From Octopus vulgaris (Eukaryota): DNA of 64,000 nucleotides. The notes under the pieces were generated by a model. That model made no database searches and was not told where the DNA came from. It saw only the letters and a list, made by a program, of their open reading frames with translations. Both the position numbers and the translations under genes were made by a program. Within the stretch, counting starts at the first letter, position 1; every line of letters begins with the position of its first letter. The DNA lies in NCBI GenBank assembly GCA_951406725.2, contig OX597824.1:84940001-85004000 (forward strand). The letters are read 5' to 3'. This document shows, piece after piece, positions 2,947-55,273 of the stretch.

Positions 2947-4001
2947 ATATATAAATATGTGTACACACACAGGTACACATATCTACACACTGACAAACAT
3001 ACATGCTCTCCCTCCCACCCGTCTTGAAAACCCTGGAAAGGGTCATGGCTTACTTCTTGATTGACTAAAAGATAGAAACGCACATATATACATAATTATA
3101 CATACGCATCATTTTACATTTGTCTTCCCATGCCGGCATGGGTTGGCCGATTGGTTATGAAGCAATGCTCTACAGCCGGGCACCTTTCCTGATGCCAACC
3201 TTTTTAGATGCCTCTTAATGAAGCACAAAATACCTTTGCTATAGACCGGTTAGACAAAGTAATATTTCCGTCCTTTCTTCTGAGACGAGGCTGAAGTTCA
3301 AAATGGGCACACTTGTTTGACTTCAGCTGTATACGAATAATTTCAGCTCAAACTGACCTGTCGATTCATTGTTCTGAATCTGTATGTTGATTTTTTTTTT
3401 AATTCTAATATTTTTTTCACATTATTTGATAAACAGCATTTACAATAAAATTCTGAAAGATTTTAAAAATCTAATCAGGCTATCAATAAAATATAGCTTT
3501 TAAAGAATTATATTTAGAGTAAAGTGTATTGTTTATGCGTATGTCATATATATATATATATATACATACACATTATTTATCTATCTCTACATTACAAATA
3601 TATACAGATTACACATATGTACATACACACCCAATAACATCATCATCAGTTTCTAAGCTCGCATGAGTCAGTTTATTGAGACAGTTTTTCTATGGCCATA
3701 CACCCTTCCTGTTGCCAACCCTTACCTCTTTCCAAGCAAGGTAATATTTTCTTAAAGCCAGACATGTTTTTTCAGAACACTGACAATGAGTAACACTGTT
3801 TGAATGACAATGGCACTCATTCACAACTACGTTGTGCAATATTGTGAGAACAACACACACAGGATGAATTGCTTTCAGTTTCCCTTGTCACAAGGCTTTG
3901 GTTGGCTCAGAGCTTAAAGTGTTACATAGAGGAACTGAACCCAAAACCATGTGGGTGGGTAGAAAGCAAACTTCTTATGCACACAGCCATGCCTGTGCTT
4001 A

Positions 4002-4405
4002 TCTGTTATATAAAATCCATTCTGTCTGTCTGTGTGTCTTCTAGGATCTCGGGCATCCGCTCCATCCAATTGCACTCAAATTTGATATGTAGATACCGAT
4101 GGTATCAAGGCGTGTATAAGTCTTGAAAAAATTACAAAAATCAATTCCAGGTGAGAATGTGATCGATAAAGACGTGAGAATGTGATCGATAAAGACGTGG
4201 GAACGTGCATTTGTAAAATCGTTTTTCTTGGAATAGAAAAAAAAAAGTATCTTTATTTCTTCTTTTGCTGGTGTCTCAAATTTAGGTTAAATCAGTGTTT
4301 CTCAAAAGGGAGGCCTATGGGACGGTCAGACAAGTTGTTTTGAAAAAATTTGGTTTAAATGTTTGACAACTCAGCACCATCCATTAGACGGGGGCGTTTT
4401 GCTTG
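4002..4405 (+). mobile_element. Non-autonomous Helitron
   Basis: A|TC 5' end (TCTGTTATATAAAA). Subterminal hairpin CCATCCATTAGACGGG. 3' end CTTG|T (decayed CTAG). The 3' half is homologous to the inverted copy at 54655-54840, which ends CTAG|T. Internal 23-bp tandem duplication at 4151-4196. Confidence 0.75.
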
Positions 4406-4865
4406 TATACATATAAATACACACAGTCACACACAGGTAAACAGCTATATTACGTATTATGGTGGGAAACTGAAAGTCAGTAAGAATGCTTTGGCTATTT
4501 GTTCCCACTCTCAGCATTCAAATCGTATGAAATGCAACTTTTGTCATTAGCAGGGTGCAGAGAAAAGCCATGTGTGCACAGGCAACTACTAATCTTCCAC
4601 AAAACAAACACTGCCCAAGACAGCACCTTCCCAACTGCAGAACCCCAACACTCAACCATAACCAAAAGAAGATTGAGATATATTCAACAATAGACAATAC
4701 ATGTATAAAGGGCATCATGCTGTGGAAAGCAAGCCAGAACCGAAACACACAGTGTGTGGTTCTCAGACCCATTTAGGAGAGCAGTGATTCTGAATAAGAA
4801 CTAAGGTAAAATATGGCAACACCCAAACCATGCCACCAGAGAAAGCCAAAGTAGAATGATAATTT

Positions 4866-5578: not shown

Positions 5579-5860
5579 CAGGCTTCTACATGTCCTAAAT
5601 AGCACCTTGGGGTTACAGTTGCCCAAAGTGCTGCCCAATGGGACTGAACCTGAAACCACATGGTTGTAAAGTGAGCAGCATCTTAACCATCCAGTCATCA
5701 TCATTTAAACATTCATAGTCCACGCTGGCATGGGCTGGCTGGTTTCACAAGATCCAGTGAACCAAAGAACAGCATCATGCTCCAGTCTCTTCCCTGGCAT
5801 GGTTTCTATGGCTGGATGGCTTCCCTGATGCCAACTACTTTACAGTGTGCTGTGGATGCA
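5578..5860 (-). mobile_element. Decayed SINE A 5' fragment (5578-5693) abutting a decayed family C copy (5695-5860)
   Basis: GGGACTGAACC...ACCACATGG motif of SINE A. TCATCATCATTTAA...GCTGGCATGGG...GGCTGGATG motif of family C. Confidence 0.7.
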
Positions 5861-7717: not shown

Positions 7718-9214
7718 TGGCTATAGCTTAGTCACCCGCATTGTAAACCAGGTAGTACATAACGGAGTCATACCCAATGACTGGTATAGCAACACCATCA
7801 TCAACTGCTACAAAGTTAAAGGTGATACACTAGCAAGGAATAACTGCAGGGGTATTAAACTGCTGGATCAGGTGATGAAGAGAGGGTCATAGTCCATCTC
7901 ATTAGGGAGAGAGTCTGCTTAGATGAGATGCAGTTTCATTTTGTTCCGGGTAGAAGCACCACTGATGCCATATTCCTGGTTCGACAACTGCAGGAGAAAT
8001 ACCTAGCTAAAGATAAACCCCTCTAATTAGCTTTTGTGGACTTGGAGAAAGCCTTTGACAGGGTCCCCCGGTCCCTTATCTGGTGGGCAATGCGGAAACT
8101 GGAGATTGACGAATGGTTGATAAGGGCTGTACAGGCCCTATACAGAGAGGCCGTTAGTAAGGTTAGGATTGGCAACGAGTATAGTGAAGAATTCCGGGTA
8201 GAAGTAGGGGTTCACCAAGGTTCAGCCCTTAGTCTTCTTCTATTCATCATAGTCCTCCAGGCAATAACAGAGGAATTCAAGATGGGTTGCCCTTAGGAGC
8301 TCCTCTATGCTGATGACCTGGCCCTCATAGCAGAATCACTACCGGAACAAGAAAAGAAATTTTGGATGTGGAAGTTAGGTTTAGAATCAAAGGGCCTTAG
8401 AATAAATGTAGCAAAGACCAAAGTTATCGCAAGCAGAAATGCGAACTCATCACACACACCCTCGTGCAGGTGGCCCTGCTCGATCTGTAGAAAAGGTGTA
8501 GGTAGAAACTTCATAAGATGTACACAGTGTAAGCTATGGATGCATAAGAGGTGGAGTAACATCAAAGGAAAATTAACCAAGAAGATAGCTTTCATGTGCG
8601 GCAGATACACAGGGGCAATAGACACCACAGATACTCAGAAAACAGATTCCATCACACTCCAGGGGGAGAAACTAGAAGTAGTTGATAGTTTCCGCTACCT
8701 AGGTGATCAAGTCAGTAGCGTAGGTGGATGCTCAGAGTGTCACCACTAGAATACGAATAGCCTGGGCAAAATTTAGAAAGCTCCTACCCCTACTGGTGAC
8801 AAAGGGTCTCTCGCTCAGAGTGAAAAGTAGATTATACGATGCATGTGTGTGAACTGCCATGCTTCATGGTAGTGAAACATGGGCTGTGACTGCAGAGGAC
8901 ATGCATAGGCTTGAAAGAAATGAAGCTAGCATGATCCGCTGGATGTGTAATGTCAGTGTGCACACACAACAGAGTGTAAGCACCCTGAGAGAAATGCTGG
9001 ACATAAGAAGCATCAGATGTGGTGTACAAAAGAGACATTTGTGCTGGTATGGTCATGTACTGCGGATGGATGAGGAGAGATGTGTGAAGAAGTGCCAGTC
9101 CCAAACAGTTGAAGGTATCCGGGGGAGAGGTAGACCCAGGAAGACATGGGATGAGGTAGTCAGGCATGACCTTCAAATGTTGGGCCTCACAGAGGCAATG
9201 ACGAAAGACCGCGA
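7718..9214 (+). mobile_element. RTE-clade LINE fragment (decayed reverse transcriptase, with stops and frameshifts)
   Basis: Translations IPNDW..NCRGIKLL, DLEKAFDRVPR, GVHQGSALS, LLYADDL, FRYLG, HGSETW, WYGHVLRMDEER and RGRGRPRKTW are typical RTE RT and C-terminal motifs. Confidence 0.95.
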
Positions 9215-11400: not shown

Positions 11401-12546
11401 ATAAAAGACAGAAAACAGGCAGTTGTGAGCAATGGAGCCACTTCCAAGGAAACGCAAATAACAAGCGGTGTCCCACAGGGCACTGTCTTCGGGCCACTGA
11501 TGTTCATAGTGGCCCTTTCAGACATGCCTTCAGTTGCTACGATGACCACCCTTGCTAGCTATGCAGATGACACAAAAGTCTCCCACGCAATACAAAACCC
11601 TGAAAATATTGCGCATCTGCAACATGAGCTGGACACAATATACAGGTGGGCTGAGGACAACAACATGCAGTTTAATGCAGGTAAGTTCCAGGCCCTGCGC
11701 TACTGGCACACAAAGGTAAATGACGTGAAGACTGGATACACTGGCCCAGGAAGAATTGCAATCCCTGAGTCAAAATCAGTGCGTGACCTGGGCATTGACA
11801 TGAGCAATGATGCATCTTTCCAAATGCATATTGCTAATCTGGTGATAAAATGCAGACGGCTAGCTGGATGGATTCTCCGAGCTTTCAGAACAAGAGAGAA
11901 GGAGACACTGATGGTCCTATGGAAAACATTCGTCCTCAGCCGCTTGAACTACTGCTCCCAACTTTGGTCACCACACAATATAAAACAAACAGCAGAACTC
12001 GAAGCAATTCAGAGAAGCTACACAAAGAAAATCGTCTCAATGCAAAATGTCAGCTACTGGGAAAGACTGAAGGTATTAAACCTCTTCTCTCTGGAGCGGA
12101 GGCGGAAGAGATATGCAGTGATATACATCTGGAAAATCCTGGAGGGTCTTGTCCCAAACTTTGGCATTCAAAGTTACTCCAACCGCAGAACGGGGCGCCG
12201 CTGCGTGGTGCCAAGGATTCCAACATCACCATCAAAATACAGGTCCAGATACTGCAACAGCTTGGGTTTCAGAGGACCACAGCTCTTTAACATCCTCCCT
12301 AAATGCCTGAGAGACTTACATGGTGTGGATGTGAGTTTCTTTAAAACTAAACTGGATCGCTTCCTGTTGGGAGTCCCAGATGAACCTACCTCACGACAGG
12401 AGACACGGATGCGGGCAGCAGCATCGGACTCCCTTGTTGATCAAGTGCCACGTATCAGAGGTGGATTCACAAACTAGTGTAGCTCATTCAGCGGTGGTGC
12501 CCCAGCATGGCCGCGGCCTTCAGGCTAAAACATTTTTAAGGATTTA
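11401..12546 (+). mobile_element. CR1-group LINE, 5' truncated, with uninterrupted RT C-terminal frame and 3' UTR
   Basis: SGVPQGTVFGP, YADDTK, VRDLG, LNYCSQLWSP and SLERRR. The frame is open to the stop at 12477. 3' motif GGTGGTGCCCCAGCATGGCC + stem-loop + AAAC. Confidence 0.95.
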
Positions 12547-13478
12547 TACATACACATATATATATCTACAATTACATACATATATATATACACACATACA
12601 CATATATCTACAATTACATACATATATATATACACATATACATACATATATATATACACATATACATACACACATATACATACACATATACATACACATA
12701 CACATATACATACACATATACATATATATATATCTACAATTACATACACATATATATATATATACACACATACACATACACATATATATATATACACATA
12801 TATATACACATATATATATATACACATATACATACACATATATATATATACACATATACATACACATATATATATATATACACATATACAAAGACATATA
12901 TATCTACACATATACATACACATATATATCTACATATACATACATATATATCTACATATACATACACATATATATACACATATATATCTACATATACATA
13001 CACATATATATACACATATACATACACATATACATACACATATATATACACATATACATACACAAATATCTACATATACATACACATATCTACATATACA
13101 TACACATATATATCGACATATATATACATATACACATACATTTATATATCTACATATATATACATATACGTTTATATATATATATACAAACACCTATATA
13201 TCTACATATATATATATATATATATATACATACAAACACCTATATATCTACATATATATATATATATATATACATACAAACACCTATATATCTACATATA
13301 TATATATATATATATACATACAAACACCTATATATCTACATATATATATATATATATATATATACAAACACCTATATATCTACATATATATATATATATA
13401 TATATATATACAAACACCTATATATCTACATATATATATATATATATATATATATACAAACATATATATACATATATA

Positions 13479-13513
<35 letters not shown>

Positions 13514-54135: not shown

Positions 54136-54654
54136 CTTTGACATTATACATGACAATGCTTATCATACAGTGGCTGACTGATAAAGAGGATCTACTATCT
54201 ACTTCATTAAGAAGTGATTCATGGTTGAAATGACCTCACACTGTAACCATCCCAACAAGTCATATACTGTTGTAGTAGTGTGTTGTTTATCCTTTCAAGA
54301 ATTCACTCCAGTTTTACTTTCAGTTCCCTGGTTGTGTGCTTTCATATTTTTAGTGCCTAAACATTTGCATTTTCCCTCTCTCTCTTTGACTGAACCCAAA
54401 ACCATATAGCTAGAAAGCAAGCTAAAAAAAAGAAAAGACCTCAGACTAATGATGCAGTAAATCATCAGTTTTGGTTGAATATTTAAAAAAACAAAATGTC
54501 TTGGTGCAGCTGTGGCTGTGTGGTAAGAAGTTTTGCTTCCCAACAACATGTTTCTGGGTTCAGTCCCACTGTGTGGCACTTTCTACTACAGCTTCAGACC
54601 AACCAAGGAACTTGGTAGACAGAAACTGAAAGTAGCCTATCTTATATATTTTTA

Positions 54655-54876: not shown

Positions 54877-54975
54877 GCTCTTAACCACTACACCATATGC
54901 CCATGGGCATATGGCGTAGTGGTTAAGAGCGTGGGCTGCTAACCCCAAGATTCCGAGTTCGATTCCAAGCAGTGA

Positions 54976-55007
<32 letters not shown>

Positions 55008-55203
55008 CTAATAATAACAACATCGAAGAATACCTTAGGAATGAGAACCCAGGTTCAAAATTTCCCCAAGACACCTGAAGTAGGCTGGAGGGTATAACAG
55101 CTGAAATGTTGTGTTAACAACAAACAAGATGAGGACAAATAATGTCAAATGTAAATAATGTAAATAATGTACAAAATTCCTCATCTCTTAAATATAGAAC
55201 TGT
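54877..55203 (+). mobile_element. tRNA-headed, hammerhead-bearing short element with palindromic 5' end (candidate Penelope-dependent SINE)
   Basis: 27+27 bp palindrome at 54877-54930. A box TGGCGTAGTGG at 54912-54922 and B box GAGTTCGATTCC at 54955-54966. Then (AAT)n, a hammerhead fold at 55070-55115 and a 3' stem AGATGAGGA/TCCTCATCT. Confidence 0.7.
55070..55115 (+). ncRNA. Minimal type I hammerhead ribozyme (degenerate copy)
   Basis: GACAC-CUGAAGU-A-GGCUG-(10 nt)-CAGCU-GAAA-UG-UU-GUGUU. Stem I is GACAC/GUGUU and stem II is GGCUG/CAGCU. The core is one substitution from CUGANGA. Confidence 0.65.
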
Positions 55204-55273
55204 AAAACCTGTTTGTTATTTGGCAAGAAATTGCTGAACACTCATATGTTGTCTAATGACAGGAGAGTCCATG

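Follow-up and report, generated by a model that had tools for sequence, protein, structure and literature searches.

In the genome of Octopus vulgaris, positions 54877-55203 of the window (that is, the whole 64,000-nucleotide stretch of DNA analysed here) carry a tRNA-like head followed by a hammerhead ribozyme motif, which raises the question of what kind of mobile sequence joins the two and how it is copied. The original prediction regarded the feature as a separate non-autonomous SINE or retrozyme that would be transcribed by Pol III, processed by self-cleavage and copied by a Penelope reverse transcriptase (RT). Judged from the sequence data, it is almost certainly a pLTR-only copy of an autonomous EN+ Penelope-like element (PLE), and consists of the pLTR plus the first ~54 codons of the element's open reading frame (ORF).

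The window copy begins with an inverted copy, on the reverse strand, of head positions 1-26 (54877-54902; 96% self-match), which is the remnant of the second arm of a head-to-head pair. The rest of this partner arm and the target duplication (TSD) are missing, and no TSD was found within 2.9 kb upstream; the predicted lack of a TSD thus holds for the window copy and fails for the family, where a TSD flanks the head-to-head pair. A short palindrome at the 5' end of the head (54898-54909) is intrinsic to the autonomous element, recurs as a dimer centre and would contain the 5' end of the RNA. The tRNA-derived head itself lies on the forward strand, like all the parts that follow, and spans 54905-54979, with an A box at 54912-54922 and a B box at 54956-54966. 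It is not a functional cloverleaf, and ARAGORN called no tRNA on it. Its alignment with genuine tRNA genes of the same genome (35 tRNA sequences compared) scores 56, where none of 300 shuffles exceeded 39.5, which upholds the predicted tRNA-like head with its two boxes; Arg or Thr scored best as the parent among the 10 tRNA types compared. The anticodon-like GCT that had been pointed out is private to the window copy, most copies having ACT.

The head is followed by an (AAT)n linker of variable length (54980-55019, with (AAT)n at 54980-55017), which forms the 5' leader ahead of the start codon and is elsewhere often split by later insertions. In L047, L052, L053, L028, L120 and L128, it is often interrupted by LINE-like elements whose own 3' ends finish with (AAT)n and which may resemble R4/Dong elements. 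The first ~54 codons of the PLE ORF (55041-55204, ATG at 55041-55043) pass through the ribozyme and the tail, and are disrupted in the window copy by a stop at 55095-55097 plus a frameshift. Within them lies the minimal type I hammerhead motif (55070-55115), with stem I at 55070-74/55111-15, the core at 55075-81, an unpaired A at 55082, stem II at 55083-87/55098-102, the GAAA at 55103-06 and the predicted cut after 55110. The loop of a 9-bp stem (55127-35/55178-86; 55127-55186 as a whole) contains 9-nt repeats that stay in frame, together with the zone where the short arms end, which would be the first RT start site, while the end of the ~33-nt PLE 'tail' (55172-55204), found on one arm only, would represent the second one (55202-55204). 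The linker, the hammerhead fold and the 9-bp stem all lie where they had been predicted.

The features of a Penelope-type minimal hammerhead, namely the core, stems I and II, an unpaired base after A9 and a palindromic helix III, were all found in the family. The decay attributed to the window copy is real in that A9 has become U at 55081 and CpG decay has affected 55102 and 55107; the A at 55079 occupies the free N7 position and is an allele of the family. For the window copy, neither stem I nor stem II is predicted to form (pair probabilities 0.04 and 0.2), and the folding z-scores by themselves are not significant; in intact copies, both stems are predicted, with pair probabilities of about 0.55 and 0.93. 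Rfam gave no hammerhead or tRNA match for the window copy or an intact copy, and none in 8 PLE loci.

As anticipated, the family is multi-copy: a 24-mer from the ribozyme has 8,785 exact matches in the genome and one from the head 4,754, the control of each having 0. The expected CUGANGA core is also there, most copies reading CUGAUGA…GAAACGUU. The intact ribozyme form is the commonest, with about 45 copies among the first 100 of the 8,785 matches listed (counted by eye), both core boxes are retained at 5,579 places (control, 12), and of 18 complete head-selected arms, 16 have every one of the 11 core letters, 10 of them with the ACGU too. The family as a whole is decayed (median non-CpG divergence, 3.3%), and since copies decay from near-identical sources, compensatory stem changes within it are not expected. 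The co-occurrence of head and hammerhead was likewise found, the body lying downstream within 1.5 kb in 21 of 30 head-selected loci; in the remaining 9, the (AAT)n linker passes into other sequence, mostly other repeats. L254, L250, L252, L021 and L029 lack 3 nt exactly at the predicted cleavage site, which may be due to slippage, mark a subfamily or be the trace of cleavage and rejoining.

Several other repeats were met. In the window, a TA-rich microsatellite-like array of 17 kb occupies 12545-29585, a stretch near 8302-8370 reads as a YADD-type RT motif, presumably of a LINE, and a different SINE-like family, with many window copies (54500-54642 and at least 12 other places), is unrelated to the PLE pLTR. 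In the genome, an older dispersed minimal-hammerhead family (around 1501-1528 in L195, L202, L204, L205, L208, L210, L213 and L214) has the same core and ACGU, with stems that are different and shorter, and with flanks rich in pyrimidines. Its 3-kb loci contain no PLE ORF, and it was ruled out as a partner of the element described below.

The autonomous Penelope/Poseidon-type element

The first lead to this element was given by RT fragments upstream of the feature at two loci, which were read as an ORF with an RT and an endonuclease. In a genome search with the ORF, the ORF end leads straight into the head in 21 of 30 ORF loci (22 retained any of the ORF end), with 29 nt between the stop codon and the head, and in a search with the N-terminus, the body stands immediately ahead of it in 17 of 30 loci; these loci contradict junctions that vary between copies. 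The unit is therefore ordered as ORF stop, 29 nt, tRNA head, (AAT)n, start codon, hammerhead motif, tail and ORF (RT plus C-terminal GIY-YIG), and the same ~300 bp are found on both sides of the ORF, after the stop codon and before the coding part. A full-length PLE that shares the sequence of the feature, whose existence the original prediction had implied, is represented by L276, a complete pLTR-ORF-pLTR copy. L282, an ORF copy that bears a pLTR and begins at the head, shows together with L276 the partial-tandem arrangement used as a criterion for PLEs.

The start codon is the ATG at 55041, from which the natural copy L252 reads open for 130 codons, with 40% identity over 122 aa to the full-length relative P0003, the ribozyme-encoded stretch included. 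Reading of the body from an ATG inside the ribozyme core was also tried; it is in the wrong frame, and a protein search with it matched nothing. The RT matches PF00078 with an E of 2.7e-6, just below the curated cut-off. The C-terminus is of the GIY-YIG type, with two Cys between GIY and YIG and two His downstream; it weakly matches (E 3.75e-4) the PF01541-positive C-terminus of another PLE family (family 1), and the Pfam GIY-YIG model gave no match on L225. The stretch that links RT to EN has no zinc-finger motif, whose absence defines the Penelope/Poseidon group in the available text of PMC8557442, and a placement in this group thus fits a GIY-YIG-type C-terminus without a linker zinc finger. 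In an RT tree of 37 rows, none of which is a named Poseidon/Penelope reference, the element stands apart from families 1 and 2 (100/100). Its closest relatives include P0001, P0002 and P0004, at 60-68%, and P0003, P0005 and P0007, at 55-56%. No relative was found in the PDB or among viral contigs, and no fully intact ORF among 78 aligned loci, the longest stop-free stretch being 568 codons. By all the features tested, i.e., an ORF with RT and GIY-YIG, flanking pLTRs, a partner arm with a tail, and a predicted hammerhead, the element is classified as an EN+ PLE, and the junction of this ORF to the feature, together with a PLE-type insertion signature, supports the proposed copying by a Penelope RT.

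Other PLEs are present in the same genome. Two young families, found via PF01541, were considered as the source of the feature and have no sequence in common with the element. One young family (L093, 81-1517 and 1439-3781; also L091, L092, L099-L101 and L103) has an extra upstream ORF of 479 aa followed by an RT plus GIY-YIG ORF of 781 aa, many intact copies, and a hammerhead-like motif with a U3-A8 core variant in its pLTR. A second one is represented in L095 by an inverted pair of 766-bp pLTRs (1321-2086 and 3718-4483), which are 100% identical, so that this copy must be very recent. As for the element itself, the ORF breaks off in a single zone of ~35 nt (about 1638-1669) in 9 of 30 loci found with the N-terminus (L247, L249, L250, L255, L258, L260, L264, L269 and L273), 8 of which jump into another pLTR. 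There is no T run at the spot, which may be a preferred RNA 3' end or a sampling effect.

Transcription of the element

Besides the canonical A and B boxes, two lines of evidence bear on the polymerase that transcribes the element. The first is the position of the 5' ends. Among 60 arms that hold the 3' end of the head, 28 begin at -7 to +2 and 23 inside the head; 4 others begin at -14 or -17 (fold-backs), 1 at -29, and 4 reach at least 300 nt into the ORF, only 5 of the 60 extending to -29 or beyond. Two ORF-bearing copies, L282 and L277, likewise start at the head. The edge formed by these 5' ends is no more than about 14 nt away from the A box, which is about where a Pol III start is expected relative to this box. 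Alternatively, the pile-up could result from cDNA fold-back at the palindrome.

The second line is the lack of Pol III terminators. When the column majority of 28 copies is taken, its 2,559 sense positions contain no run of four or more T (P 0.007, with a mean of 4.4 after shuffling). The absence holds under codon-aware nulls (P 0.026-0.036), and there is no depletion of A runs; the deficit is modest, about 3 runs being expected. In the RT ORFs of two other PLE families of this genome, whose T content is similar, 9 and 8 such runs occur. In relatives from metagenome contigs, T4 runs occur in 66 of 68 ORF segments, which were taken from 79 loci after shorter matches had been dropped. In 14 relatives, chosen from 20 with a ribozyme-like match by dropping near-duplicates and one atypical sequence, T4+ runs are found between the ORF end and the ribozyme in 13, and A/B boxes in none. 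Since the other 2 of the 68 segments are also T4-free, and so is L297, a 2.1-kb ORF without a tRNA head, the low T4 count may be inherited or due to chance.

As the 5' ends pile up at the head and no TTTT terminator occurs in the 2.56-kb unit, it is moderately likely that Pol III transcribes the whole element from the tRNA-derived module of the pLTR, and an involvement of Pol III appears likely. Transcription by Pol III leaves the translation of an uncapped RNA unexplained. Among the matching sequencing runs listed, none is recorded as RNA. Contigs from 4 runs, which we guess to be RNA, span pLTR and ORF; the ends, strand and level of a transcript are not visible in contigs.

According to one alternative, the same element would be transcribed by Pol II from a TATA-like box at the ORF stop, with the tRNA head carried as a passenger in the 5' UTR or acting at most as a TFIIIC-binding helper. 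The TATA-like hexamer lies at -34 to -29, overlapping the stop codon and about 30 nt ahead of the putative RNA 5' end, a position that fits a Pol II start or a TATA-assisted Pol III start equally. Described PLEs with a pLTR start site and spliceosomal introns (PMC8557442, as far as its text is available) also speak for Pol II, as do the TATA- and CCAAT-like motifs read by eye in the pLTRs of two other PLE families of this genome; a capped RNA would remove the translation problem, and L297 demonstrates that a T4-free ORF needs no tRNA head. Nevertheless, the entire unit, UTRs included, is T4-free, as opposed to the T4 runs of 13 of the 14 relatives, the A and B boxes are intact and correctly spaced from the 5'-end pile-up, and the 29 nt between the stop codon and the head leave scant space for a promoter region. 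Pol II transcription of this kind is thus unlikely, though worth considering.

A division of labour, in which Pol III would produce the RNA used as template, which would account for the excess of short copies, and the protein would come from rarer Pol II or read-through transcripts, is improbable. It would avoid cap-independent translation, the sequence contains both promoter types, and ORF sequence is present at just 5 of 57 sampled sites, about 90% being without it. By sequence, it is indistinguishable from transcription of the whole element by Pol III, and it requires two promoters where one may suffice.

Insertion of the short copies

The short copies keep a detailed record of their insertion. 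The 131 body arms of 120 loci include 47 pairs of neighbours, of which 43 lie head-to-head, 3 in tandem and 1 tail-to-tail. The 3' ends of the 131 arms are bimodal, with 64 short and 59 long, and 35 of 37 pairs (56 loci) combine one long and one shorter arm, the latter without the ~33-nt tail. Direct repeats with a score of at least 10 across the outer ends of the pair were found in 25 of 37 cases, against 16 of 1,332 mismatched flank pairs, so that target duplications of 10–13 bp enclose the whole head-to-head pair. Dimer centres differ among insertions, and the short palindrome at the head is often the joint. The two arms of an insertion have 20 derived variants in common in 40 pairs (shuffled mean 4.0, maximum 12), which indicates that both derive from one RNA or one source locus, and disfavours two unrelated RNAs that would pair via ACGU and insert together. 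An inverted truncated partner copy and a tail of 30-40 bp are hallmarks of PLEs (PMC8557442, available text), and the short copies indeed have an inverted 5'-truncated partner and a 30-40-bp tail at one end. In the case of the anole PLE, the accessible part of PMC11167929 reports that both target strands are extended in vitro, that RT starts at two internal sites bounding the tail and that ribozyme cleavage is not required.

These data also bear on whether the short copies form a true SINE or retrozyme lineage, whose solo copies would be transcribed, cleave themselves and spread independently by using the PLE enzyme in trans. Solo copies retain the A and B boxes and far outnumber ORF copies (8,785 motif matches, against 215 and 3,084 first-look candidates for the 5' and 3' parts of the ORF, respectively), and in head-selected arms the core is altered less than its surroundings (4/296 vs 129/3,172), as such a lineage would predict; yet the core overlaps coding sequence, and thus its conservation need not be catalytic. 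Three family alleles that were tested are found in the pLTRs of ORF-bearing loci too, none being confined to short copies. As few sites carry the ORF and these alleles are common to ORF-linked pLTRs, a separate SINE lineage is not required. In addition, tandem pairs are rare, copies cross the cut site, the upstream TATA-like box is absent from most solo copies, and solo copies stop at the tail, without the downstream ORF sequence needed in the anole PLE template in vitro (PMC11167929, available part). An independent lineage, as originally predicted, is therefore very improbable. Finally, a fold-back, MITE-like DNA transposon with long inverted repeats and a 10-13-bp TSD would explain the inverted arms and the TSDs and can practically be dismissed, the arms being unequal by a fixed tail, their centres differing among insertions and the sequence being continuous with the RT ORF.

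Copying from the autonomous PLE could then proceed as follows. The RNA would start a few bases ahead of the head and, meeting no TTTT, cross the ORF into the next pLTR. The protein of the element would nick both target strands about 10-13 bp apart, and reverse transcription would begin at two internal sites of the RNA, separated by about 33 nt, a two-site internal start being proposed as it was shown in vitro for the anole PLE. A start at the 5' pLTR would copy only the first ~300 nt and generate SINE-like copies, while a start at the 3' pLTR would generate ORF-bearing ones. The two cDNAs would unite at their 3' ends, often via the head palindrome, and give head-to-head pairs. The template is probably an uncleaved RNA, as the predicted cut site is contained within the copies and cleavage at +70 would separate off the start codon; with the prevalence of head-to-head pairs, this argues against the original idea of processing by self-cleavage, which is apparently not needed to account for the copies. 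If active, the ribozyme might work as a dimer- or protein-dependent switch that takes off the start codon. Taken as a whole, it is quite possible, if still tentative, that a Pol II promoter was swapped for a captured tRNA promoter, with terminators purged from the 2.4-kb ORF, uncapped translation behind an (AAT)n leader, and about ten thousand SINE-like by-products of internal priming.

Comparison with known systems

Among the known systems closest to the element are the Penelope/Poseidon-clade PLEs, such as PAc of Anolis, which, in the text available to us, share a single ORF with RT and C-terminal GIY-YIG, a hammerhead where the ORF starts, two 3' ends that are separated by 30-40 nt and fall in the first ~170 nt of the ORF (PMC11167929) and, in Penelope/Poseidon PLEs, an inverted 5'-truncated partner arm (PMC8557442). 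The 3' end sites lie at +122-131 and +162-164 in the octopus element, and one site of PAc lies at +111-118 (PMC11167929). Unlike these PLEs, as far as they are described there, the octopus element has in its pLTR an A/B-box module derived from a tRNA as well as an (AAT)n leader, 29 nt from stop codon to head, a T4-free unit, and a predominance of pLTR-only copies. The minimal hammerheads of metazoan PLEs (PMC4209133, available text) have the same motif, with a 5-bp helix I, an unpaired base between A9 and G10.1, a G10.1-C11.1 pair and a palindromic ACGU at helix III; here, it is found downstream of a tRNA-type promoter, as a putative ribozyme.

Among short repeats, Schistosoma SM-alpha and Sj-alpha (PMC6765202, in the part available) are similarly short, high-copy repeats in which a hammerhead comes after a Pol III-type promoter. 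They are tandem non-coding units released by cleavage, unlike the octopus sequence, which belongs to a coding element as its pLTR, is inserted in head-to-head pairs and would be copied uncleaved. Animal non-LTR retrozymes also have a type I hammerhead, a length of ~300 bp and a relation to PLE pLTRs (PMC7229834; bioRxiv 10.64898/2026.07.22.740005; available texts), but are defined as tandem repeats, unlike the family described here, where 3 of 47 pairs are tandem. The words 'tRNA' and 'Pol III' do not occur in the available text of bioRxiv 10.64898/2026.07.22.740005. Thus, the family is SINE-like only in its tRNA-type promoter and its many short copies; it is neither a separate family, as a SINE would be, nor made of tandem units, as a retrozyme would be. 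The capture of a small-RNA-derived Pol III promoter in the terminal repeat of a retroelement has a parallel in the TRIMp3 Cassandra, Helenus and Ajax, which, in the accessible text of PMC10886601, are non-autonomous LTR elements, the octopus element being an autonomous protein-coding PLE.

Pol III promoters in mobile DNA have been described for non-coding passengers, such as SINEs and TRIMp3. As for coding elements, R2 is co-transcribed by Pol I and translated without a cap. It resembles the octopus element in being a coding retrotransposon with a 5' ribozyme (PMC6765202, available part) that is expressed without an ordinary Pol II mRNA, and differs in RT clade, ribozyme class and polymerase, and in having no promoter of its own. 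The literature search, which did not extend to subscription journals, Repbase, Dfam and SINEBase, found no tRNA-headed or Pol III-transcribed PLE and no PLE-mobilised tRNA SINE. The available text of PMC3531059, PMC4758252, PMC6962438 and PMC8969392 contains nothing relevant to the octopus element. In the main text of the octopus repeat annotation (PMC13282606), 'hammerhead' and 'Pol III' do not occur; its supplements may include the family, and the short family may already have a name.

If confirmed, a coding retrotransposon driven by Pol III would pose the testable question of how a long uncapped Pol III RNA is translated, and would reveal one way in which SINE-like families arise, by a direct route from a Penelope element. 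Annotators should be aware that some sequence labelled as a 'tRNA SINE' can in fact represent the pLTR of a PLE. The thousands of small insertions also document cleanly, and in vivo, the step of PLE insertion left open in the available text of PMC11167929, in that a 10-13-bp duplication encloses two arms of common source, of which only one has the tail. Collectively, the nearest analogues are the Schistosoma hammerhead repeats and TRIMp3, both non-coding as far as their descriptions are accessible, and what appears to be new is the tRNA A/B-box module in place of the usual PLE promoter region.
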